DNA from: an uncultured Candidatus Saccharibacteria bacterium | GTDB lineage: Bacteria > Patescibacteriota > Minisyncoccia > Phycocordibacterales > Phycocordibacteraceae | Length of the DNA stretch: 64,000 nt | Assembly (NCBI GenBank): GCA_964357395.1 | Contig: CAYHLC010000002.1 | Coordinates: 41,033-105,032 of the forward strand | Direction: 5' to 3' | Part shown: positions 544 to 52,123 of the stretch, one piece after another | How positions within the stretch are numbered: position 1 is the first letter of the stretch | Layout of the letters: every line of letters begins with the position of its first letter | Notes under the pieces: generated by a model | Seen by the model: only the letters and a program-made list of their open reading frames with translations | Databases searched by the model: none | What the model was told of the DNA's origin: nothing | Made by a program: the position numbers and the translations under genes

Positions 544-1509
544 ATGGATACACCGAAACCAAAGATAACCCCCAAGGACTTTTTCCTCTGGCTCGGAGCG
601 ATGGCGTCTCTCTACGTCTCTATCGTCTCTATCCTCACACTTTATTTCCAATACATTAACCACCTGTTCCCAGACCCGCTTGCGGGCTATGTGGACCCAT
701 ATTCCTCGACCATCCGTTTTGCTATCGCATCCTTAGTGGTTGCAACGCCGCTCTATATATACCTGACCCGCAAGATCAATACTGACATCCGCACCATCCC
801 CGAGAAGAAGGACCTATGGGTCCGCCGCTGGTTGATATACATCACCCTCTTTATTGGCGGGCTCACACTAGCAATCGATCTCGTCGCGCTCATCAACGCC
901 TTTCTCGGTGGTGATATCACCATGCGCTTTGTGCTCAAGGTGGTTGCAGTATTCGTCGTCGTCTCAGGATTCTTTTGGTACTACCTATCGGACCTTCGTG
1001 GCAAGTGGGAGCGGCAGGCGCAGTTGGGGCACATACTCGGCTACGGCGTAGGGGCACTCGTGGTCGCCTCTATCCTTGCTGGCTTCCTGATTATCGGATC
1101 GCCGATCGATCAGCGCTTGTACCGCTTTGATGAGCAGAAGGTTATGGACCTTGGCGGTATCCAGTCGCAGTTGGTGTACGGCTACTGGCAGCAGAAGGGC
1201 GAGTTGCCCGAAGACCTCAGCGCGCTCCAGGACCCTATAAACGGCTACATAGTCCCGATGGATGCACAGACGGGGGTGCCGTACGTGTACGAAAAGACCG
1301 GAGAGATGTCGTTCAAGCTCTGTGCGACATTCAACAAAGAGACTCGCGCCAATGACCCGTACGCTCGGCCCACTGTTGCCGTGCCGTCTAAAATGGTTCC
1401 AGGCGAAGTCGGTATCGACCTGCAGGCGCTACCATGGACCCACGGAGTAGGGGAGACCTGTTTTGACCGCACCATTGATCCGGAGCGCTACCCCGTATTC
1501 AAAAAATAG
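544..1509 (+). CDS. Hypothetical polytopic membrane protein
   Basis: 321-aa ORF with several hydrophobic helices in the N-terminal two thirds. No recognisable motif. Confidence 0.55.
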   Translation: MDTPKPKITPKDFFLWLGAMASLYVSIVSILTLYFQYINHLFPDPLAGYVDPYSSTIRFAIASLVVATPLYIYLTRKINTDIRTIPEKKDLWVRRWLIYITLFIGGLTLAIDLVALINAFLGGDITMRFVLKVVAVFVVVSGFFWYYLSDLRGKWERQAQLGHILGYGVGALVVASILAGFLIIGSPIDQRLYRFDEQKVMDLGGIQSQLVYGYWQQKGELPEDLSALQDPINGYIVPMDAQTGVPYVYEKTGEMSFKLCATFNKETRANDPYARPTVAVPSKMVPGEVGIDLQALPWTHGVGETCFDRTIDPERYPVFKK

Positions 1510-1523
1510 GGTACGATTCCTAG

Positions 1524-1958
1524 ATGACTGATGCTGCGCCGCGCATAAAAGTTGGTGTAGGTGTTTGGGTCTGGAAGGACGGGAAAGTCCTGATGGGACG
1601 TAGGCTTGTTAAGAACCATAGTGATAACACTTTTGCTTCCCCGGGAGGGCATTTGGAGTTCGGAGAGAGCTTTGAGGACTGTGCCAAGCGCGAGGCGATG
1701 GAAGAGGCTGGCATTGTGGTAGATAACGTTCGAGTCACAACCGTATCCAACCTACTTTTGTGGGAGGGCAAGCACTATGTCGACATAGGCCTGGATGCTG
1801 AGTGGAAGTCTGGTGAGCCGCAGGTGCTTGAGCCAGATAAGTGCGCAGGGTGGGAATGGGTAGATCCTAAAGATCTTAAAGAGCCATTGATGGTGGGTGA
1901 CAGGCTTCGCATAGAGGCAGGCCAGACGGGGAAATGGTATTTTGGGACAATCAAATGA
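1524..1958 (+). CDS. NUDIX hydrolase
   Basis: Canonical Nudix box GHLEFGESFEDCAKREAMEEAGI (Gx5Ex7REUxEExGU). Its stop overlaps the leuS ATG (ATGA). Confidence 0.85.
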   Translation: MTDAAPRIKVGVGVWVWKDGKVLMGRRLVKNHSDNTFASPGGHLEFGESFEDCAKREAMEEAGIVVDNVRVTTVSNLLLWEGKHYVDIGLDAEWKSGEPQVLEPDKCAGWEWVDPKDLKEPLMVGDRLRIEAGQTGKWYFGTIK

Positions 1959-4843
1959 AAGACTACAACCACAAGGATATAGAAAAGAAGTGGCAAGACG
2001 AGTGGCAGAAGAGTGGTATCTACAAAACTCCTGACGTACCGAAGAAGAAGGCATATGTCCTCGACATGTTTCCGTACCCATCAGGCGAGGGGCTCCACGT
2101 GGGCCACCCGAAGGGCTACATAGCGACCGACGTCTACTCGCGCATGAAGCGCATGCAGGGCTACTCGGTACTGCACCCCATGGGTTGGGACGCCTTCGGC
2201 TTGCCGGCAGAGAACTATGCGCTCAAAACCAAGACCCATCCAAGTAAGGCGGTCGCAAAGAATGTTGCGAGATACAAGGAGCAACTCTCAATCATTGGCT
2301 TCGATTACGACTGGACGCGAGAGATAGATACGACCGATCCTAAGTACTACAAGTGGACGCAGTGGATCTTCCTGAAGTTGCTGGAGAAGGGGCTCGCAGT
2401 CCAGTCCTTCGCACCTATCAACTGGTGCCCGTCATGTCAGACCGGACTTGCGAACGAGGACGTCGAGGCTGATGGTACGTGCGAGCGCTGTGGCACTAAG
2501 GTAGAGAAGCGCCCTATGCGCCAATGGGTACTGAAGATAACTGATTATGCCGAGCGACTCCTTGCAGACATCGACCAGCTTACCCGCTGGCCGGAGCATA
2601 TAAAGGAGATGCAGCGCAACTGGATTGGCAAGAGCGAGGGCGCTGAAATATACTTTGAACTAAAGTTTACGGACGCGAAGCAAAACGAGAATCGTGACCC
2701 TGAGGGCAATAAGGCTCGCATACCAGTATTCACCACTCGACCCGACACGCTCTATGGCGCGACCTACATGGTGCTTGCCCCCGAGCATCCGTGGGTGACG
2801 CTCGCCTTGGATAAGAACCATAAAGGAATACTTCCGAATGTTGATGAGGTCCGCGCATATGTGGAGGGTGCAAAGCAGAAAGGTGAGATAGAGAGAACGG
2901 CGGAAGGAAAGGAGAAGACGGGCGTAGAGCTGCAGGGAGTTAAGGCAATCAATCCAGCAACAAAAGAGGAAATACCAATGTATGTTGCGGACTATGTCCT
3001 CGGCCACTATGGCACCGGCGCGGTGATGGCTGTCCCTGCGCACGACGAGCGCGATTACGCCTTTGCTAAGAAGTATGACCTACCGATTAAGCAGGTGGTC
3101 ATGCCGTGCATGCACGACCTAGTTAAGCCGCCTCAGCCAGGCCTCCCCGAGGTCGCGCGCGACACCGTGGTTGTCTTCTTGAAGGACACTGCAACCGGTA
3201 AGTATGCGGTCTTGGATTGGCACGGTGCACAGGACGGCGTCTCGACCGGCATTATGGGTGGTATCGAGAACGGGGACACACCGGAGGAGGCAGCGCTTGG
3301 TGAGATACGCGAGGAAGCATCCATTCCGAACGCCCGCATCGTGCATACGCTCCGCTGGACCAGCGCAGCTACGTACTGCGCTGCGCATAAGGGTGAGAAC
3401 CGAAGGGCTACTGCGCGCGCCTTCCTTGCGGAAGTAGATGGACTAGCAGAGCAGGGAGCAATAAGCGCAGAGGAGGACACAAAGCACACCCTCGCATGGA
3501 TAACAGAGGATGAACTATTGAAGCGTACAGGACTACCTGAGCATCAGAGGTGGCTGTGGCAGCAGCTCCACATCGAGACGCCTCTTATAGAGGGGGGTGC
3601 TCTCATAAACTCGGGAGAGTTTGATGGCACAGATAACGAGGAAGCAAAAAAGAAGATTACGGAAGCGGTAGGGGGCAAGATGGTGACGACATACAAGTTG
3701 CAGGACTGGGTGTTCAGCAGACAGCGTTATTGGGGTGAGCCGATCCCAGTCATCCATTGCGAGAAGGATGGCGTGGTGCCAGTGCCGGAAAAGGACCTAC
3801 CTGTCGTGCTCCCTGAGGTAGAGCATTACGAGCCAACAGGGACAGGCGAGTCACCACTCGCTAACATCCCCGATTGGGTTAACACAACGTGTCCGAAATG
3901 TGGAGGGCCAGCAAAGCGCGAGACCAATACCATGCCGCAATGGGCCGGCAGTAGCTGGTACTACCTCAGGTACATGGACCCGGATAACAACGATGTGCTT
4001 GTTGATCCGAAAAAGGAAAAGGCATGGGCACCGGTCGACCTGTACGTGGGCGGGGCGGAACACGCAACGCGCCATCTCATATATGCACGCTTCTGGCACA
4101 AGTTCCTGTATGACCAAGGCGTTGTATCTAGCGTTGAGCCATTTACTGAGCTGCATTCAGTCGGCCTCATCCAAGCAGAGGACGGACGCAAGATGAGTAA
4201 GCGCTGGGGCAATGTGATCAACCCGGACGATATAGTGGATCGGTTTGGCGCGGACTCGTTGCGCGTGTATGAGATGTTTATGGGTCCGTTTGGAAACGCG
4301 ATTGCATGGTCCACCAATGGCCTAGTCGGTGCACGCCGATTCATTGAGCGTATCTGGAGGCTTAGCGAGAAGGCGGGGGATGAAATACCCGTACTCGAAA
4401 CTGTACTCAACTTTACTATCCAAAAGGTGGGGGTTGATATTGCGGAATTCAAGTTCAATACGGCCGTGTCCCAAATGATGATCCTCCTGAATGCTGCCGA
4501 AGCAGCTGGTATAGGTCGTACCCAGCTTGCAACCTTCCTTAAGTTAGTCGCCCCGTTCGCGCCACACGTGGCTGAGGAGCTCTGGCAGGGGATGGGGAAC
4601 AAGGGCTCCGTCCACCTGGAGGAGTGGCCGACCTATGACCCCGCAAAACTGGTCGCGGAGACCGTAGTGGTGGCAATTCAGGTAGGAGGGAAAATGAAAG
4701 GAACAATCCAGGTACCCCGCGACTCTAGCCAGGATGAGGTCCTGAATGAAGTGCGGAAGAGCGAAAAAATGGCTCAATATATGGCTGAAAAGCCATCCAA
4801 GGTAATCTTCGTGGCTAACAAGATTATTAACCTAATTCCATGA
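1955..4843 (+). CDS. leuS: Leucyl-tRNA synthetase with an extra ~160-aa Nudix-like insertion
   Basis: HVGH (HIGH) motif, editing-domain TTRPDT and GTGAVMAVPAHDERD, KMSKR (KMSKS) motif, and a conserved C-terminal domain. Likely start is the ATG at 1955 (MKDYNH..). The ORF track starts at 1934. Confidence 0.95.
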   Translation: MKDYNHKDIEKKWQDEWQKSGIYKTPDVPKKKAYVLDMFPYPSGEGLHVGHPKGYIATDVYSRMKRMQGYSVLHPMGWDAFGLPAENYALKTKTHPSKAVAKNVARYKEQLSIIGFDYDWTREIDTTDPKYYKWTQWIFLKLLEKGLAVQSFAPINWCPSCQTGLANEDVEADGTCERCGTKVEKRPMRQWVLKITDYAERLLADIDQLTRWPEHIKEMQRNWIGKSEGAEIYFELKFTDAKQNENRDPEGNKARIPVFTTRPDTLYGATYMVLAPEHPWVTLALDKNHKGILPNVDEVRAYVEGAKQKGEIERTAEGKEKTGVELQGVKAINPATKEEIPMYVADYVLGHYGTGAVMAVPAHDERDYAFAKKYDLPIKQVVMPCMHDLVKPPQPGLPEVARDTVVVFLKDTATGKYAVLDWHGAQDGVSTGIMGGIENGDTPEEAALGEIREEASIPNARIVHTLRWTSAATYCAAHKGENRRATARAFLAEVDGLAEQGAISAEEDTKHTLAWITEDELLKRTGLPEHQRWLWQQLHIETPLIEGGALINSGEFDGTDNEEAKKKITEAVGGKMVTTYKLQDWVFSRQRYWGEPIPVIHCEKDGVVPVPEKDLPVVLPEVEHYEPTGTGESPLANIPDWVNTTCPKCGGPAKRETNTMPQWAGSSWYYLRYMDPDNNDVLVDPKKEKAWAPVDLYVGGAEHATRHLIYARFWHKFLYDQGVVSSVEPFTELHSVGLIQAEDGRKMSKRWGNVINPDDIVDRFGADSLRVYEMFMGPFGNAIAWSTNGLVGARRFIERIWRLSEKAGDEIPVLETVLNFTIQKVGVDIAEFKFNTAVSQMMILLNAAEAAGIGRTQLATFLKLVAPFAPHVAEELWQGMGNKGSVHLEEWPTYDPAKLVAETVVVAIQVGGKMKGTIQVPRDSSQDEVLNEVRKSEKMAQYMAEKPSKVIFVANKIINLIP

Positions 4844-4864
4844 CCTGGGGATAACTCTCTATAT

Positions 4865-4893
4865 TTGACGCTTTTAGCATCACGTGCTATAAA
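4865..4893 (+). promoter_or_regulatory. Sigma70-type promoter candidate (TTGACG-17-TATAAA) upstream of the 4914 gene
   Basis: Direct read: TTGACG at 4865-4870, 17-nt spacer, TATAAA at 4888-4893, about 20 nt before the ATG. Confidence 0.4.
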
Positions 4894-4913
4894 GATATGG
4901 CATAATAAACTCA

Positions 4914-5969
4914 ATGGCAAAACTAACATTCAAACCCCAGGCAGTTAGCAAGCGTCTCGTACAGAATCTTCCGGAGCGATCGAGAGACGTCGTCGTGAGT
5001 CGTTACGGACTAGGAGACAAGAAGGGCGCAGAGACCTTGGATGCCATCGGCAAGCGATACGGCATTACTCGCGAGCGTGTACGCCAGATCGAGAGCCACG
5101 CTATCAAGGCTATCCAGGACTCGCCAGCGCTCGCCAAGGAAGCTGGCGCGCTACAGTCACTCGAGAGCGCTATTCGCGACATGGGCGCCGTACTTCCGGA
5201 GCACAGCATCCTCACCGAGTTTGCTACTGATCCTGAGACCAAGAATCATTTGTATTTCCTCATGGTTGTTGGCAAGCCGTTCATTTCGAGGAAGGAGGAC
5301 GACAACTTCAAGACGCGTTGGTACGTCGATGAGTCAGTCGCCAAGGCAGTCGAGGATGCACTAAAGACGGTACACCAGAGTATCAAGCCGAACGATGTGG
5401 TGACTGAAGACAAGCTGGTTGATCACGTACTCTCGTGCCTCTCTCGCGTCAACGTTAAGTACAAGAACAAGGACACCGCACGCCGCTGGCTCGACCTCTC
5501 AAACTGCCTGATGCGCAACCCGCTTGGAGAGTGGGGCCGCTCGGGCGCACCAGGTATCAAGCTCAAGAACATTCGTGATCATGCGTACCTCGCTCTCAAG
5601 CGCCACGGTTCCCCAATGCACTTCCGTGAGGTAGCCAAGGAGATCGACAAGCTTTTCGGCAAACGCGCGCACCAGGCGACGACGCACAACGAGCTGATTA
5701 AGGACAAGCGCTTTGTGTTGGTAGGTCGCGGTATCTATGCCCTCTCTGAGTGGGGCTACCGCCCGGGTGCAGTTATCGACATCATCAAGCATGTCTTGAA
5801 GGAGAAGGGTCCGCTGACTCGAGATGAACTGATCAAGGCCGTTGGTAACGAACGTCACGTTAAGCTCAACACCATCATAGTTAACTTGCAGAGCCCGGCG
5901 CTCTCGAAGACCAAGGACGGCAAGTACGCACTCGCGAAATTGTTCCAAGTTCTGAGTCCAGAGTTCTGA
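4914..5969 (+). CDS. DNA-binding protein with an N-terminal sigma-70 region-4-like HTH and a C-terminal HARE-HTH (RpoE-delta-like) winged helix
   Basis: N-terminus LPERSRDVVVSRYGLGDKKGAETLDAIGKRYGITRERVRQIESHAIKAI resembles sigma70_r4. C-terminus KDKRFVLVGRGIYALSEWGY resembles the HARE-HTH signature. Confidence 0.55.
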   Translation: MAKLTFKPQAVSKRLVQNLPERSRDVVVSRYGLGDKKGAETLDAIGKRYGITRERVRQIESHAIKAIQDSPALAKEAGALQSLESAIRDMGAVLPEHSILTEFATDPETKNHLYFLMVVGKPFISRKEDDNFKTRWYVDESVAKAVEDALKTVHQSIKPNDVVTEDKLVDHVLSCLSRVNVKYKNKDTARRWLDLSNCLMRNPLGEWGRSGAPGIKLKNIRDHAYLALKRHGSPMHFREVAKEIDKLFGKRAHQATTHNELIKDKRFVLVGRGIYALSEWGYRPGAVIDIIKHVLKEKGPLTRDELIKAVGNERHVKLNTIIVNLQSPALSKTKDGKYALAKLFQVLSPEF

Positions 5970-5989
5970 GTTTCTGATACCATGGGCAC

Positions 5990-7228
5990 ATGAACCGTGG
6001 CTTTTGGCTGCGCAGCGGGCTTATCGCATTCGTCGTGCTTACGCCGATCCTTATTTTTGCTGCGCCTTCGGTGGCTGCGTTTATCTACCTCACTATTGTG
6101 ACGCTCGCACCGTTCTGGCTTCCCGTCGTACTTGCACTGATCGCATGGCCGCTGTGGCTGACCTACGCGCGGTCCAAGTACGTCTCACAGATTCCGTACA
6201 CGACGCTCGAGCTGAAGCCGGGCGACAACACCCCAAAGACTGCACGACCGATGGAATTGATCCTCTACTCACTCTACTACCGCACCGACGTAACATGGAC
6301 GAGTGCGCTCCTCCAGGGAGCGACTCGTGTTCCGTGGAGCTTGGAGGTATGTGCAACAGGTGGCACCGTGCGTTTTTATATTCACATACCAACGCACCAC
6401 CGCCAGGCAGTCGAGGCGCGTCTCCGCTCCGAGTACAAAGACATTGATATCGACGAGGCGCGCGACTACTCGAGGGAGCACCACTTCAATCCGTTCGAAA
6501 CAAAACTGAAGATGGTTGAGTTCCAACTTGCTAAGGCGGATCCGTATCCACTCATGACCTACGAAGCACACGAGCACGCAAAGGAGCATCGAGACGTGTT
6601 CGCGGAACTCCTTGAAGAGCTTGCAAAGGTACCGAACGGGCAGCAGGTGTGGGTGGCACTCATCATTCGGCCGCACCAAAGAGACTGGGGCCGCGGCTGG
6701 TATGACTGGCTCAACCCGCCTGTAGACACGCTGCACGAAGATGCATCAGTTGAGATACAAAAACTGATTGGTACTGCAGGCGACATGCGACATGTCGCTG
6801 CAGGGGTCAAGGATACGGTGAACGCGATAGAGAAGGCGCTGCAGAAGCCTTCATTCGATTGTGGCCTCCGCGTTGCGTACACTGCGCCTCGTAATCAGTG
6901 GAGCGTGGATAGGGCAGAGTCCTTGGAACACCTCTTCGACCGCTTTGGCGATCATACTCTCAACAGCTTAGTGCCGTACGATCCTCGCCTCGACGTTGGC
7001 TGGCCTCTGTCTGACATCTTTGCTGTTGCGCCTGCCTTGGACGACGAGTACTACCTCAAGCTGTACCGCCGTCGCGCCTTCTTTGCGCCACCCTACTACG
7101 GACGCGCATTCGTACTGAACACGGAGGAGCTGGCAACACTGTGGCACCTCCCAAAGTTTGGACGCTCGAGCGCGCTTGCGCGCGCGCGAGGATCGCGCCT
7201 CGAGGCACCTGCTAATCTACCGGTATGA
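5990..7228 (+). CDS. Hypothetical protein with two N-terminal TM helices
   Basis: 412-aa ORF with no recognised motif. Its stop overlaps the mltG start (ATGA). Confidence 0.5.
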   Translation: MNRGFWLRSGLIAFVVLTPILIFAAPSVAAFIYLTIVTLAPFWLPVVLALIAWPLWLTYARSKYVSQIPYTTLELKPGDNTPKTARPMELILYSLYYRTDVTWTSALLQGATRVPWSLEVCATGGTVRFYIHIPTHHRQAVEARLRSEYKDIDIDEARDYSREHHFNPFETKLKMVEFQLAKADPYPLMTYEAHEHAKEHRDVFAELLEELAKVPNGQQVWVALIIRPHQRDWGRGWYDWLNPPVDTLHEDASVEIQKLIGTAGDMRHVAAGVKDTVNAIEKALQKPSFDCGLRVAYTAPRNQWSVDRAESLEHLFDRFGDHTLNSLVPYDPRLDVGWPLSDIFAVAPALDDEYYLKLYRRRAFFAPPYYGRAFVLNTEELATLWHLPKFGRSSALARARGSRLEAPANLPV

Positions 7229-8118
7229 AGTTCCGAATCCGTGCCTTTGGTATTTTTGCTGCGCTCGTAGTCCTGTACGCGTTCCTCATCGCGCCGCCAC
7301 TGAACTATCCAACAGGTATGACGGTGCAGGTTGCGCAGGGCGAGTCGGTCGGGGCTGTTGCAGACAACCTGTACCTCCTCGGTGCCATCCAGTCTCGACC
7401 AATCTTCAAGCTTGCCGTGATACTCCTCGGTGGGAGTGTGCAGGCGGGCGCGTACCTCTTGGACAAGAACAACACACTGTTCCTCGCATATCGGATGACA
7501 CGCGGCGAGACAGGTCTCGAGCAAGTACGCATAACTATCAGAGAGGGTATGACCCTGCGGGAGATAGAGAAGTTGGTGGGGACTGACCTCCCGGATGACC
7601 AGGAGGGGTACCTATTCCCAGACACGTACGACTTCCTTCCCGGCTCGCCCGCAGACTTGGTAGTAGCGCGTATGCATAGCAGGTACGAGGAGCACGTGGC
7701 ACCACTCCGAGCAGAGATCGAAGCTTCGGGACACACCGAGGAAGAGATCATAATCTTGGCATCAATACTCGAGAAAGAGGCACGGCAACCTGAAACGATG
7801 CGTATCGTCTCCGGCATACTCTGGGATCGAATCAAGATAGGGATGCCGCTCCAGGTGGATGCCGTCTTCGGCTACATCAACAATCGGCCGACATACCATC
7901 CGAGTGGGGAGGATCTCGAAATCGATTCGCCGTACAACACGTATAAGTATCCAGGCCTCCCGCCAGGCCCCATTGGTAACCCCGGTATGACTGCTATTGA
8001 GGCCGCCCTCCGGCCGGGAGAGAGCCCGTACCTCTACTACCTCACCGGCGTCGACGGAACCATGCACTACGCCAAGACCTTTGAGGAGCATGTCCGCAAC
8101 CGCCGCTTCCTTAAGTAG
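7225..8118 (+). CDS. mltG: Endolytic murein transglycosylase MltG (YceG-like)
   Basis: N-terminal TM helix followed by YceG-like motifs ILASILEKEA, PLQVDAVFGY and YNTYKYPGLPPGPIGNPG. Confidence 0.85.
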   Translation: MKFRIRAFGIFAALVVLYAFLIAPPLNYPTGMTVQVAQGESVGAVADNLYLLGAIQSRPIFKLAVILLGGSVQAGAYLLDKNNTLFLAYRMTRGETGLEQVRITIREGMTLREIEKLVGTDLPDDQEGYLFPDTYDFLPGSPADLVVARMHSRYEEHVAPLRAEIEASGHTEEEIIILASILEKEARQPETMRIVSGILWDRIKIGMPLQVDAVFGYINNRPTYHPSGEDLEIDSPYNTYKYPGLPPGPIGNPGMTAIEAALRPGESPYLYYLTGVDGTMHYAKTFEEHVRNRRFLK

Positions 8119-28642: not shown

Positions 28643-29733
28643 TGGCTACCGACTACTATTCGATTCTGGGCGTTGACAAGAAAGCGTCGAAAGACGATAT
28701 CAAAAAGGCGTTTCGCAAGCTCGCGCACAAGTATCACCCCGACAAGTCGGGCGGCGACGAAAAGAAGTTTAAGGAAGCGAGCGAGGCGTACGCAGTCCTC
28801 TCGGATGACAAGAAGCGCGCTGAGTACGACTCGTACGGACGCGTCTTCGGCTCCGGTGGTGGAGGGGCGGGCGGCAATCCGTTTGATGGATTCGACTTCT
28901 CACAGTTTGGTGGCTTCGGCAACGGTCAAGGTGGCGGGTTCGAGGTCAACTTGGACGACTTGTTTGGTGGCTTCTCTGACATATTTGGTAGTGGAGGCAA
29001 GCGCAGCGGCCGGAGGGGTAGAGACATATCGATAGATATCGAGCTCTCGTTCAAGGAGTCTGTGTTCGGTGTCGAGCGCCATGTCCTCCTCACCAAGGAC
29101 AGTAGCTGCAGCCGCTGCTCGGGGAATGGTGCCGAGCCGGGTTCGAAGACCAAGACCTGTCCAACCTGTAACGGCAAGGGACAGATAGTCGAGAGCCAGC
29201 GCTCTCCGTTTGGGACCTTCTCGGTTGCAAAGACTTGCACCACTTGCCACGGCAAGAAGACGGTACCCGAAACTGTGTGTACCAAGTGTCGTGGTGCTGG
29301 TGTCGAGCGGAAGGAGGAGGAGATCGTGATAGCAGTGCCACCAGGAATAGATAACGGGCAGGTGATCCGCATGACCGAGATGGGTGAGGCTATTAGTGGC
29401 GGGAAGTCGGGGGACCTCTATATCAAGGTGCATGTTTCTGCGGACTCCAAGTTCCGCAAAGAGGGCTTCAACATCGTTACCGATCTATCTATCAAAGTCA
29501 CTGATGCATTGATGGGGGCGGACTATACACTCGATACGCTAGACGGACCGGTCACTGTGACTGTGCCGCCGCTCCGCGCCACAGACGAGATCTTGCGCGT
29601 CAAGGGCAAGGGCGTGCCGATGGATGGCGGGAAGCGTGGCGACCTCCTCATCCGCGTCAAGCTCGAGTTCCCACACAAACTCTCGCGCGATGCACAGGAA
29701 CTCCTGAGGCAGCTGAAGCAGGAAGGCATATGA
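28642..29733 (+). CDS. dnaJ: Chaperone DnaJ
   Basis: J-domain with HPD (KYHPDK), a G/F-rich region, and a CxxCxGxG zinc finger x4. Confidence 0.95.
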
Positions 29734-30164
29734 TGCACTTCCGCGCCCGTGGTGTTGCAGTGCAGAGCGACAAGATCTTCCTCGCGCATCATCTTGGAGG
29801 CAAGGGCCATTACTTCCTACCAGGCGGACATATCGAGGATGGAGAGGCAGCACGAAGGACGGTCGAGCGCGAGTACCTCGAGGAAACGGGCCTGACGGTA
29901 ACTGCTACCGATTTTCTGTTTGCGTCTGAGCATGCGTATGTGGACGAGCAGGGCCAGCATGCAGAGATCAATCTGATATTCAAAGTAGAAGGGGACATAC
30001 CTACGGAGCCTACTTCGGCTGAGGAGCACTTGGAGTTTGTGTGGGTGGCCGCAGCCGACTTGCATACTATTAACTTTCTCCCTACTCAGTTCATTCCACC
30101 ACTCGTCGCTTACATCGAGGGCAGGGCAGTGCCCTCATTCCACAGCACTATTCGGAAGGAGTAA
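29730..30164 (+). CDS. NUDIX hydrolase
   Basis: Nudix box [24 protein letters not shown]. Overlaps the dnaJ stop (ATGA). Confidence 0.85.
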
Positions 30165-49211: not shown

Positions 49212-49469
49212 ACGTCCATTTTCTTCTCCCTCTCCTGGAACAATGGCTCCAGCTGGACCAGTACCAAGACCGCCACGGTGGATGGCACGACCGACGCCAC
49301 ATACACCCTTGGAGGTGTCACCGACACCTGGGGGAGAGCATGGACTGATACCGAGCTCGCAGACGGAACATTCCGTCTGATGGTCGATAAGGCAAGTGAT
49401 CCAGACACATATTCCAAAACGCGATACACTGCACCAGATGAAGCCTCAAATACAATTCATCACAGCTAA
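49212..49469 (+). pseudogene. 5'-truncated fragment homologous to an internal insert domain of the RHS protein (SLSWNNGSSWTSTKTATVDGTTDATYTLGG.TDTWGR.WTDTEL)
   Basis: The 85-aa frame, open from just after the TAA at 49209-49211, is closely similar to RHS region 46450-46640. No start codon and no RHS core. Confidence 0.55.
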
Positions 49470-49827
49470 GGGTATCCTGCGCAGAGAGGGAAGGATCTTG
49501 TGCCTGAAGGACACCAGTGGCAATTGGGAGCTGCCGGGCGGGCGGTTAGATTTTGGTGAGACACCCGAGCTGGCGCTTAAACGCGAATTTAAGGAGGAGC
49601 TCGAGGTGCAGGATGTGCAAGTTGGGAGGCTACTGCACGCATGGACGTTTATGGTTAGCGGGGAGGACAGTGACCGGCAGTATGTCCTACTGGTCTATGA
49701 ATGCGAGGCACCTCAGCAAGAGTTGCGGCGGAGCGATGAGCACTTGGAGATTGGCTGGTTTACCAAAGGTGAGATTGTGGATTTGCCAATGCGCGACGGC
49801 TATAAGCAGGCGATTAATAAACTCTAA
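49438..49827 (+). CDS. NUDIX hydrolase
   Basis: Nudix box LPGGRLDFGETPELALKREFKEELEV. Start ATG at 49438; the track ORF from 49396 overlaps the RHS fragment. Confidence 0.8.
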   Translation: MKPQIQFITAKGILRREGRILCLKDTSGNWELPGGRLDFGETPELALKREFKEELEVQDVQVGRLLHAWTFMVSGEDSDRQYVLLVYECEAPQQELRRSDEHLEIGWFTKGEIVDLPMRDGYKQAINKL

Positions 49828-49832
49828 CCGAC

Positions 49833-50264
49833 ATGACGAATCACTTTGCGGTGAATGTGGAGGCGGCTATCTATCGAGATGGCAGATGGTTAGTTGGCGT
49901 ACGGGGGAAAGGGGAGAGTGAGGCGCCAGGGTTATTGTCGTTCGTCGGTGGGACGGTGGAGCATACTGACCCCTTGGTAGATACGCTCGAAAGTGCCTTG
50001 GTACGAGAGATTGAGGAAGAGCTAGGAGTGAGAGTGGCGGTGAATGGCTTTGTAAACGACACGACATTTGTATCCAAGAAAGGGAATCACGTTATTAATA
50101 TTGTGTTCCTATGCACCATAGTGGAAGGTGAACCGAGGATTGTAGATGTGAACGAAAACGAGGAGTTGCTGTGGCTCACCTCTGAGGAGATATTGAGCTA
50201 TCCAAATGTCCCGCCCTGGCTCTCTGAAAGTGTTAAAAAGGCAGAGGGTATACTGAAGGGATGA
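49833..50264 (+). CDS. NUDIX hydrolase
   Basis: Nudix box FVGGTVEH..ESALVREIEEELGV. Confidence 0.8.
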   Translation: MTNHFAVNVEAAIYRDGRWLVGVRGKGESEAPGLLSFVGGTVEHTDPLVDTLESALVREIEEELGVRVAVNGFVNDTTFVSKKGNHVINIVFLCTIVEGEPRIVDVNENEELLWLTSEEILSYPNVPPWLSESVKKAEGILKG

Positions 50265-51675: not shown

Positions 51676-51682
51676 ATTTAAC

Positions 51683-52123
51683 ATGAATGCGTTTCGGGTC
51701 AGTGTCGCTGGGGTGATCTTGGATGCGGACGGGAGGATACTCCTTTGCCAGCGGAGCCAAACAAAGAAGTTTGCTCCGGGCGCGTGGCACATGCCTGGCG
51801 GTGGGGTAGACGAGGGCGAGAGTATTGAGGATGCTCTCCGCCGCGAACTACGCGAGGAGCTGGCGCTCGAGCTAGTGGATACGCCACTCAATACTGGTGT
51901 CGTGTATACATACGACGACCCAGAGCGCACAGATGAAGTCCGCTTTTATGCAGCGCGGGCTGCTAATGCTCCACAACTGGTTAACTATGAGAACAGCGCC
52001 TTTGTGTTTGTAAACGAGGATGAGTTTCCTAAATACCTCTCGATCGCACGCGGCGATGATGTAGCAGCTGTCCTCGACGTCAACCTCCGTGCTGCAGCCG
52101 CAGCGCGCAGTATCCTAGGCTAG
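51683..52123 (+). CDS. NUDIX hydrolase
   Basis: Nudix box MPGGGVDEGESIEDALRRELREELAL. Confidence 0.85.
   Translation: MNAFRVSVAGVILDADGRILLCQRSQTKKFAPGAWHMPGGGVDEGESIEDALRRELREELALELVDTPLNTGVVYTYDDPERTDEVRFYAARAANAPQLVNYENSAFVFVNEDEFPKYLSIARGDDVAAVLDVNLRAAAAARSILG

Follow-up and report, generated by a model that had tools for sequence, protein, structure and literature searches.

A Nudix domain inserted into the CP1 editing domain of leucyl-tRNA synthetases from Patescibacteria

The leucyl-tRNA synthetase (LeuRS) gene leuS of an uncultured Candidatus Saccharibacteria bacterium is located in a stretch of 64,000 nucleotides (contig CAYHLC010000002.1 of assembly GCA_964357395.1, positions 41,033 to 105,032 of the forward strand), called the window in the following. 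The encoded enzyme has a complete Nudix domain in a surface loop of its CP1 editing domain. The closest described systems are the hydrolases of diadenosine polyphosphates (ApnA) and the RppH (NudH) type enzymes, e.g. NUDT2, the Lupinus enzyme (1f3y), Ndx1 of Thermus thermophilus, and RppH of Escherichia coli, with which the insert shares the fold, the size, and the glutamate triad. The likeness to the NUDT2 type extends to a tyrosine 17 residues past the Nudix box, a conserved lysine in the same loop, and an N-terminal arginine that falls on the Y-R-x-N-V motif. However, the insert is only about 15-20% identical to these enzymes, stays below the RppH cut-off, is embedded in LeuRS, and belongs to a family with features of its own, namely the motifs H-K-x-x-N-R and H-x-x-W and an N-terminal D-x-x-N-P-P extension. 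The window copy differs in addition by missing the arginine and the first glutamate of the box. The best profile match in the PDB (E 1.9e-11) is to AvrM14-A and AvrM14-B of flax rust (8dp8, 8dp9) and covers the box, the Lys/Arg motif, and the C-terminal tryptophan, but these are secreted effectors of a eukaryote and their context is unrelated to that of the LeuRS insert. AvrM14 has reportedly mRNA decapping activity in vitro. The MutT/Nudix protein 2azw of Enterococcus faecalis, a structural-genomics entry whose title names no function, is 18% identical to the insert, free-standing, and without the family lysine, and gives no functional lead.

Nudix folds within larger proteins are known from the NUDT9H domain of TRPM2, from NrtR, and from DBC1, which like the insert have an altered box and which serve in ligand sensing (PMC5389931). 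These domains have lost the catalytic glutamates, whereas the triad of the LeuRS inserts is almost invariant. A comparable fusion is described by the NCBIfam model NF040702, an isoleucyl-tRNA synthetase carrying an N-acetyltransferase (GNAT) domain, and thus likewise a class I synthetase of the Leu/Ile/Val group bearing an unrelated enzyme domain. Host and domain are different there, while the Nudix domain of LeuRS is inserted into the editing domain, is found at several sites and in tandem, and stands alongside alpha/beta-hydrolase or ITPase domains. NCBIfam contains no exception model for a Nudix-bearing LeuRS, and none of the solved LeuRS structures in our PDB comparison carries a Nudix insert. 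Searches of full-text literature yielded nothing relevant on a Nudix domain in LeuRS or other aminoacyl-tRNA synthetases, or in synthetases of the candidate phyla radiation (CPR), Patescibacteria, or Parcubacteria. Synthetases are not mentioned in a comprehensive review of the Nudix clan (PMC5389931), and two CPR proteome papers do not mention a Nudix-bearing LeuRS. The architecture is visible in precomputed Pfam annotations, which contain NUDIX matches for nearly all of the 112 insert-bearing LeuRS considered below, and has yet apparently not been described. LeuRS and Nudix domains are each known; new are their combination, the placement within the editing domain, and the existence of a dedicated subfamily.

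Position and fold of the insert

The features of the gene are as follows (all on the + strand).

1955..4843, +, leuS, leucyl-tRNA synthetase, 962 residues from the ATG at 1955 (TIGR00396, match to 1h3n, P0001)
2615..3100, +, CP1 editing domain, segment preceding the insert (PF13603: residues 228-394 correspond to profile positions 1-145 of 185)
3101..3595, +, Nudix domain insert of 165 residues (residues 390-554 of the 969-residue open reading frame)
3257..3325, +, variant Nudix box GGIENGDTPEEAALGEIREEASI, with E->D, R->G, and G->S compared to GX5EX7REUXEEXGU and the glutamate triad E457/E460/E461 kept
3374..3403, +, family motif Y-C-A-A-H-K-G-E-N-R with Tyr481, Lys486, Asn489, and Arg490
3596..3703, +, CP1 editing domain, segment following the insert, from GALINSGEFDG to KLQDW, where the chain returns to the catalytic core (1h3n, PF13603)

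The open reading frame at 1934-4843 (+) encodes a bacterial LeuRS, with 976.6 bits against the cut-off of 548.4 for the equivalog model TIGR00396 and an E-value of 7e-225 against the T. thermophilus LeuRS 1h3n. An in-frame ATG upstream at 1934 would result in 969 residues; the ATG at 1955 (962 residues) is the likely true start because P0001, the database copy of the window LeuRS with 100% identity, and the homologues begin there. Between the segments DLPIKQVV and GALINSGEFDG there are exactly 165 residues, where the T. thermophilus enzyme has about seven unaligned residues (loop 368-376) and where insert-less close relatives have 3-41 residues. This bears out the insertion that an earlier note had claimed from the sequence, but not the location given there, between the editing domain and the catalytic core. 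The insert is instead located inside CP1, as the editing-domain profile PF13603 is interrupted at position 145 of 185 and has a second matched stretch after the insert. In the phmmer alignment to 1h3n, residues 8-395 correspond to T. thermophilus residues 1-368 and residues 550-748 to 376-579. The segment following the insert falls into residues 224-417 of the T. thermophilus enzyme, which make up its editing domain.

The Nudix fold that the note had proposed holds as well. The insert alone scores 34.1 bits against the Pfam NUDIX profile PF00293 and the full protein 29.4 bits, the gathering cut-off being 21.1. The AlphaFold2 model of the insert, built with an alignment of 43 homologous inserts, has a predicted local distance difference test (pLDDT) score of 96.1 and displays the alpha/beta/alpha fold of Nudix domains. 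The identification goes well beyond what chance would give. The model of the full-length LeuRS reaches a pLDDT of 90.5 and a predicted template modelling (pTM) score of 0.80. Because the pLDDT at the junctions is 92-96, this model suggests that the insert is docked and not attached by a floppy linker.

Two trivial explanations of such an insertion were considered and rejected. An intein or other mobile element does not fit a confidently modelled Nudix fold that starts with MPC and ends with IEG/G and has no intein terminal residues. An assembly chimera does not agree with the more than 100 independent sequences, drawn from NCBI, JGI, ENA, and Logan, in which the reading frame runs through the insert.

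Concerning the host enzyme, the class I motifs HVGH (2096-2107) and KMSKR (4190-4204) are present, as are the CP1 editing motifs TTRPDT (2732-2749) and GTG...AHDERD (3011-3055). Across an alignment of 80 LeuRS, some with and some without the insert, the Thr-rich TTRPDT, the GTG, and the aspartate of AHD do not vary. Therefore, apart from the insert, the window LeuRS looks fully competent for both aminoacylation and editing, and we discarded the idea that the insert substitutes for a dead editing site. The leucine-specific domain is found in the T. thermophilus and E. coli LeuRS but is not universal. In the alignment to 1h3n the window has no counterpart of T. thermophilus residues 579-629, and this domain is also missing in the relatives of the window LeuRS (gap at window position ~4170-4190, residues ~745-748). 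A role of the insert as a tRNA-binding stand-in for the lost domain was rejected as well, since the inserts are strongly acidic and the insert-less relatives are also without that domain.

The Nudix box, conserved residues, and possible ligands

The earlier note had called the Nudix box degenerate and had read it as REEAS. The box of the window copy indeed departs from the consensus and does not match the full GX5EX7REUXEEXGU, the first glutamate being an aspartate, the arginine a glycine, and the last glycine a serine. However, REEAS was misaligned. According to the alignments with the Lupinus diadenosine tetraphosphate (Ap4A) hydrolase and within the family the register is G442-x5-D448-x7-G456-E457-I458-R459-E460-E461-A462-S463-I464, so that the EUxEE part is intact as GEIREE. 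The metal-binding glutamates are kept throughout the 112 inserts, with E457 and E461 present in all of them and E460 in 111. K486 and W522 are also invariant, R409 is found in 110 inserts, and N489, R490, H485, and H518 are near-invariant (counts for the family motif: K 112, N 107, R 101, Y/F 109). The complete canonical box is present in 50 of the inserts. Another 59 have a derived box, called Q-type here, in which the first glutamate is mostly a glutamine and the arginine an alanine, serine, or methionine, the two positions changing jointly. The window insert counts among the Q-type, but no other insert combines Asp and Gly at the two positions. It retains all residues that are invariant in the family, namely R409, G442, E457, E460, E461, K486, N489, R490, H518, and W522.

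Some cysteines and histidines (C392, H430, C482, and H537) are specific to the Q-type inserts and not shared by those with a canonical box, whereas H485 and H518 are conserved in both types. The respective codons in the window are at 3107-3109, 3221-3223, 3377-3379, 3386-3388, 3485-3487, and 3542-3544. These residues could form a metal site or a contact surface.

Foldseek lists NUDT15, BdRppH, CT771, NudI, the human Ap4A hydrolase, RppH, and NudB as structural neighbours, and the PDB profile search has the Lupinus Ap4A hydrolase and 2azw next to AvrM14-A/B at its top. The neighbours in sequence and fold are thus small single-domain Nudix enzymes acting on substrates with at least three phosphates, and not enzymes of the ADP-ribose type. 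Tyr481, which is replaced by Phe in a quarter of the family members, stands 17 residues past the box and thereby within the spacing of about 16-18 residues of the ApnA-type tyrosine. In a profile alignment (hhalign, probability 96%) Tyr481 is placed on Y82 and Lys486 on K87 of NUDT2. We take Y82 to be the residue called Tyr87 in the nuclear magnetic resonance entry, assuming a numbering offset of five residues. Tyr87 is the adenine-stacking tyrosine that determines the specificity for ApnA (PMC5389931). The Ap4A-like ligand suggested in the note is, given this tyrosine, a reasonable guess. Aminoacyl-tRNA synthetases rank among the main producers of Ap4A in the cell, and Nudix enzymes cleave this compound asymmetrically (PMC10148737). 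With a mean net charge of -8.8 and an isoelectric point of 5.3 the inserts are strongly acidic, which fits a small-molecule ligand better than tRNA or other RNA.

Tentatively, we regard the insert as an accessory pyrophosphohydrolase of the ApnA/NTP (nucleoside triphosphate) type, or a ligand-binding module, that is tethered to LeuRS, a reading that is possible but by no means assured. A nucleoside polyphosphate would be bound through the glutamate triad and Mg2+, the basic residues R409, K486, and R490, and Tyr481 stacking on the adenine. The most plausible ligands would be Ap4A-type dinucleotides, which form from aminoacyl-adenylate and ATP, or an aberrant purine NTP. In the lineages with a canonical box the ligand would be hydrolysed at the synthetase. 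In the window copy catalysis is probably weakened or altered, because the glutamate and the arginine of the box are replaced by Asp and Gly, and ligand binding may have been retained.

It is also conceivable, although rather doubtful, that the domain is a non-catalytic ligand sensor and, in the Q-type, a pseudo-enzyme, in which a bound nucleotide (Ap4A, NTP, or an alarmone) allosterically tunes aminoacylation or editing in a way comparable to NUDT9H gating TRPM2. The joint replacement of the box glutamate and arginine in 59 of 112 inserts would agree with this, as would the junctions, which are predicted to be rigid, and Nudix domains without enzymatic activity are an accepted class (PMC5389931). 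In addition, the Q-type inserts are 55-60% identical among themselves compared to about 35% for the canonical ones at equal divergence of the LeuRS cores, which suggests extra constraints such as intramolecular contacts, but the sampled hits were ordered by their likeness to a Q-type query, and this may exaggerate the difference. However, the metal-binding glutamates are near-invariant in the Q-type too, where a pure binding module would not need them, and close relatives dispense with the insert altogether.

Another activity to be considered is that of an RNA 5'-end pyrophosphohydrolase or decapping module, similar to RppH or AvrM14, acting on tRNA-Leu or another RNA bound by LeuRS. This is suggested by the rank of AvrM14 as best PDB profile match, by RppH and BdRppH among the Foldseek and NCBIfam neighbours, and by the conserved N-terminal arginine, which lines up with Y-R-x-N-V as it occurs in the Ap4A hydrolase/RppH type. 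We nevertheless think it very improbable, given the strongly acidic inserts and the 17.7 bits that the insert scores against the RppH equivalog of NCBIfam (NF001938), far under the cut-off of 116. Moreover, mature tRNAs have monophosphates at their 5' ends.

Distribution, insertion sites, and losses

With only the insert as query, a word-indexed search of proteins gave no match, and a single-sequence pattern scan of genome contigs gave two marginal loci, the patterns being too specific. The survey of related LeuRS that the earlier note had proposed shows how widespread the domain is. Of the 120 nearest LeuRS, 112 carry a Nudix insert of 156-170 residues at the position of the window insert and eight do not. 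The named sources are Patescibacteria, Minisyncoccia, or Parcubacteria, with one exception labelled Candidatus Nanoarchaeia. The insertion is ancient in a large clade of the Patescibacteria and is thus not a recent event. A metagenome scan with the window insert type revealed 59 further loci. One of these (L009; ERZ1292625, Hain-H41 0.1 um), a contig from a Hainich groundwater metagenome, encodes an insert identical in sequence to that of the window, which points to groundwater as the likely habitat of the window organism and to its small-cell size fraction.

An exhaustive HMMER search with the insert against 1.84 billion representative proteins (E<=0.001) resulted in 140 clusters, which were sorted with hidden Markov models (HMMs) of the LeuRS core and the insert. 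All multi-domain clusters are LeuRS or LeuRS fragments except two to three of other or unresolved architecture (P0210, P0258, P0129). About 32 clusters are free-standing proteins of 150-200 residues that start with Met and share with the inserts the N-terminal D-x-x-N-P-P-x-x-G...V-x-R extension, the box, H-K-x-x-N-R, and H-x-x-W. Within LeuRS there are at least three insertion sites, that of the window being by far the commonest. A second site is near the start of CP1 (e.g. P0018, P0122, P0124, P0125, P0128, P0130) and often contains a tandem pair, and a third one was found further downstream in P0138. A single LeuRS can contain up to three Nudix domains. Extra copies at other sites are also present in P0154, and P0125 has the tandem pair and no copy at the window's site. 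By similarity, the domains of the different LeuRS sites interleave with the free-standing proteins. The insert belongs to a distinct LeuRS-associated Nudix subfamily that is almost confined to LeuRS or small free genes.

The insert is dispensable and accessory to aminoacylation, because close relatives have lost it, and it is labile in the sub-lineage of the window. The LeuRS cores closest to that of the window are P0002 (76.8% identity, insert present), P0011 (76.4%, insert absent), P0003 (75.8%, insert present with E->G in the box), P0027 (74.8%, insert absent), and P0047 (74.4%, insert absent). The neighbour-joining tree built from the LeuRS cores has poor resolution and mixes canonical with Q-type inserts; only the local grouping of the window with insert-less LeuRS was used from it. 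Could the insert then be a functionless, decaying remnant in the window lineage? The insert-less P0011, P0027, and P0047 are close to the window core, and the box is eroding in the window (D/G/S), in P0002 (N), and in P0003. The window insert is also only 51% identical, compared to about 60% for typical Q-type inserts. However, the frame is uninterrupted, no family-invariant residue is missing, the model is confident, and the identical insert is found in the independent assembly L009, so that we consider a mere remnant highly unlikely. The higher conservation of the Q-type inserts, with the reservation about sampling made above, argues against a general decay.

Genomic neighbourhood, other inserted hydrolases, and biological meaning

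Directly upstream of leuS is a further gene of the Nudix clan.

1524..1958, +, free-standing Nudix gene of 144 residues with a canonical box (74.6 bits with the Pfam NUDIX profile), of a different subfamily from the insert

As the note had observed, its stop codon (TGA, 1956-1958) overlaps the leuS start at 1955 as ATGA. A recent capture of the insert from this neighbour has to be dismissed. BLASTP gives no alignment of the upstream Nudix protein to the insert, the protein scores 23 bits on the insert-family HMM where true members reach 120-230 bits, and a Nudix gene is found upstream of leuS in only about 4 of some 48 Q-type loci with upstream sequence, namely in the window and its twin L009, in L011, and in L041. 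In the nearest insert-less relative (P0011, L008) the DUF5671 gene is directly followed by leuS. The window has five free-standing Nudix genes in its 64 kb (1524-1958, 29505-30161, 49381-49824, 49821-50261, and 51677-52120), i.e. four and not five in addition to the upstream one. Two of them overlap head-to-tail, and all five are outside the insert subfamily. The gene order around leuS is kept in the clade (window 544-8118, L001, L008, and the contig of P0131) and consists of a DUF5671 membrane protein, an optional Nudix gene, leuS, a protein with sigma-70 region 4 and HARE-HTH domains, DUF8128, and YceG.

Orthologues of the upstream Nudix protein, with 44-48% identity, are encoded beside leuS in L011 (two copies; 3339-4206), and in L068 (3478-3921) and L069 head-to-head with a free-standing gene of the insert family. 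The two Nudix types thus tend to co-localise, with the insert family either fused or free.

Free-standing members of the family are linked to leuS in three of the seven contexts examined. P0131 abuts a Nudix-bearing leuS with the same synteny as in the window. In L041 a family member of 189 residues abuts leuS. P0248 is located 2.4 kb upstream of an insert-less leuS, in a co-directional cluster with metG, tatD, an HD nucleotidase gene, and another Nudix gene. In the remaining contexts the free-standing genes adjoin fpg, tig-clpP-rny, a MutT-like Nudix gene, or a uridine-kinase-type gene. For example, P0143 begins four nucleotides after fpg/mutM, which encodes 8-oxoguanine glycosylase, in three contigs (L005 4016-5513, L006, and L007), which hints at a role in connection with oxidised nucleotides for at least some members. 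A domain that is fused in some genomes and encoded by a neighbouring gene in others is a classic signature of a functional link.

Nudix domains are not the only hydrolases inserted into the LeuRS of this clade. Further LeuRS contain an alpha/beta-hydrolase domain of about 170-190 residues (PF06821/PF12697/PF00561), either in the CP1 loop before TTRPDT (equivalent to window position ~2690-2720; P0026, P0074, P0078, P0087, P0089, P0091, P0092, P0100, P0101) or after IHCEKD in the catalytic core (equivalent to ~3768; P0035, P0048), and always in addition to the Nudix insert. In P0119 this CP1 loop (window ~2690-2720 equivalent) contains a Ham1/ITPase domain (PF01725), again in addition to the Nudix insert, so that LeuRS can carry NTP house-cleaning enzymes of a second kind.

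Such a collection could be explained if the Nudix domain were a house-cleaning hydrolase of the NTP or nucleotide pool that merely hitch-hikes in a permissive CP1 loop of an essential and constitutively expressed gene, with no coupling to leucylation. The alpha/beta-hydrolase, Ham1/ITPase, and extra Nudix copies in the same LeuRS clade are in agreement with this, as are the at least three positions occupied by the domain, the free members near fpg, a MutT-like Nudix gene, the HD nucleotidase gene, and tatD, and the five other Nudix genes of the window. However, pure hitch-hiking does not predict that LeuRS is the host in all but two to three of the multi-domain clusters, nor that the free genes are repeatedly linked to leuS. 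This near-sole host and these free genes near leuS argue against it, and we regard it as unlikely.

The reading as an ApnA/NTP-type hydrolase or binding module tethered to LeuRS is thus still the one we prefer, but a number of observations weigh against it. Although Ap4A, Ap6A, and ApnA hydrolases rank high among the neighbours, they do so at scores similar to those of NUDT15, NudI, NudB, the diphosphoinositol polyphosphate (PP-InsP) phosphatases, and RppH; such mixed structural neighbours do not point to one substrate class, and the cut-off of the RppH equivalog is not reached either. To our knowledge there is no evidence for LeuRS being a major producer of Ap4A. The window copy lacks the arginine and the first glutamate of the box, and its nearest relatives show a decaying box (E->G in P0003) or have lost the insert. 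The tolerance of at least three insertion sites argues against a precise geometric coupling to the active site of LeuRS. Finally, the alpha/beta-hydrolase and ITPase inserts in the same LeuRS would fit a generic carrier role equally well.

Accessory domains of synthetases usually mark non-canonical functions. Here, throughout a whole branch of the candidate phyla radiation, an essential enzyme contains a nucleotide hydrolase of the catalytic type within its proofreading domain. As a broader and speculative idea, which we think unlikely to hold in full, the LeuRS editing domain of this Patescibacteria clade might serve as a platform on which hydrolases are mounted (Nudix domains, numbering one to three, ITPase, alpha/beta-hydrolases), and these together would form a hitherto unrecognised layer of nucleotide-level quality control or alarmone control coupled to aminoacylation. 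In that case the Nudix domain would remove nucleotides of the Ap4A type or aberrant ones derived from adenylates at the place of their synthesis, or would sense them and tune leucylation and editing. The pattern of fusion and neighbourhood is strong genomic evidence and hints that leucyl-tRNA synthesis may be linked to nucleoside-polyphosphate metabolism, i.e. to Ap4A or the sanitation of NTPs, in these organisms. This could bear on how minimal genomes handle the by-products of synthetases or alarmones.

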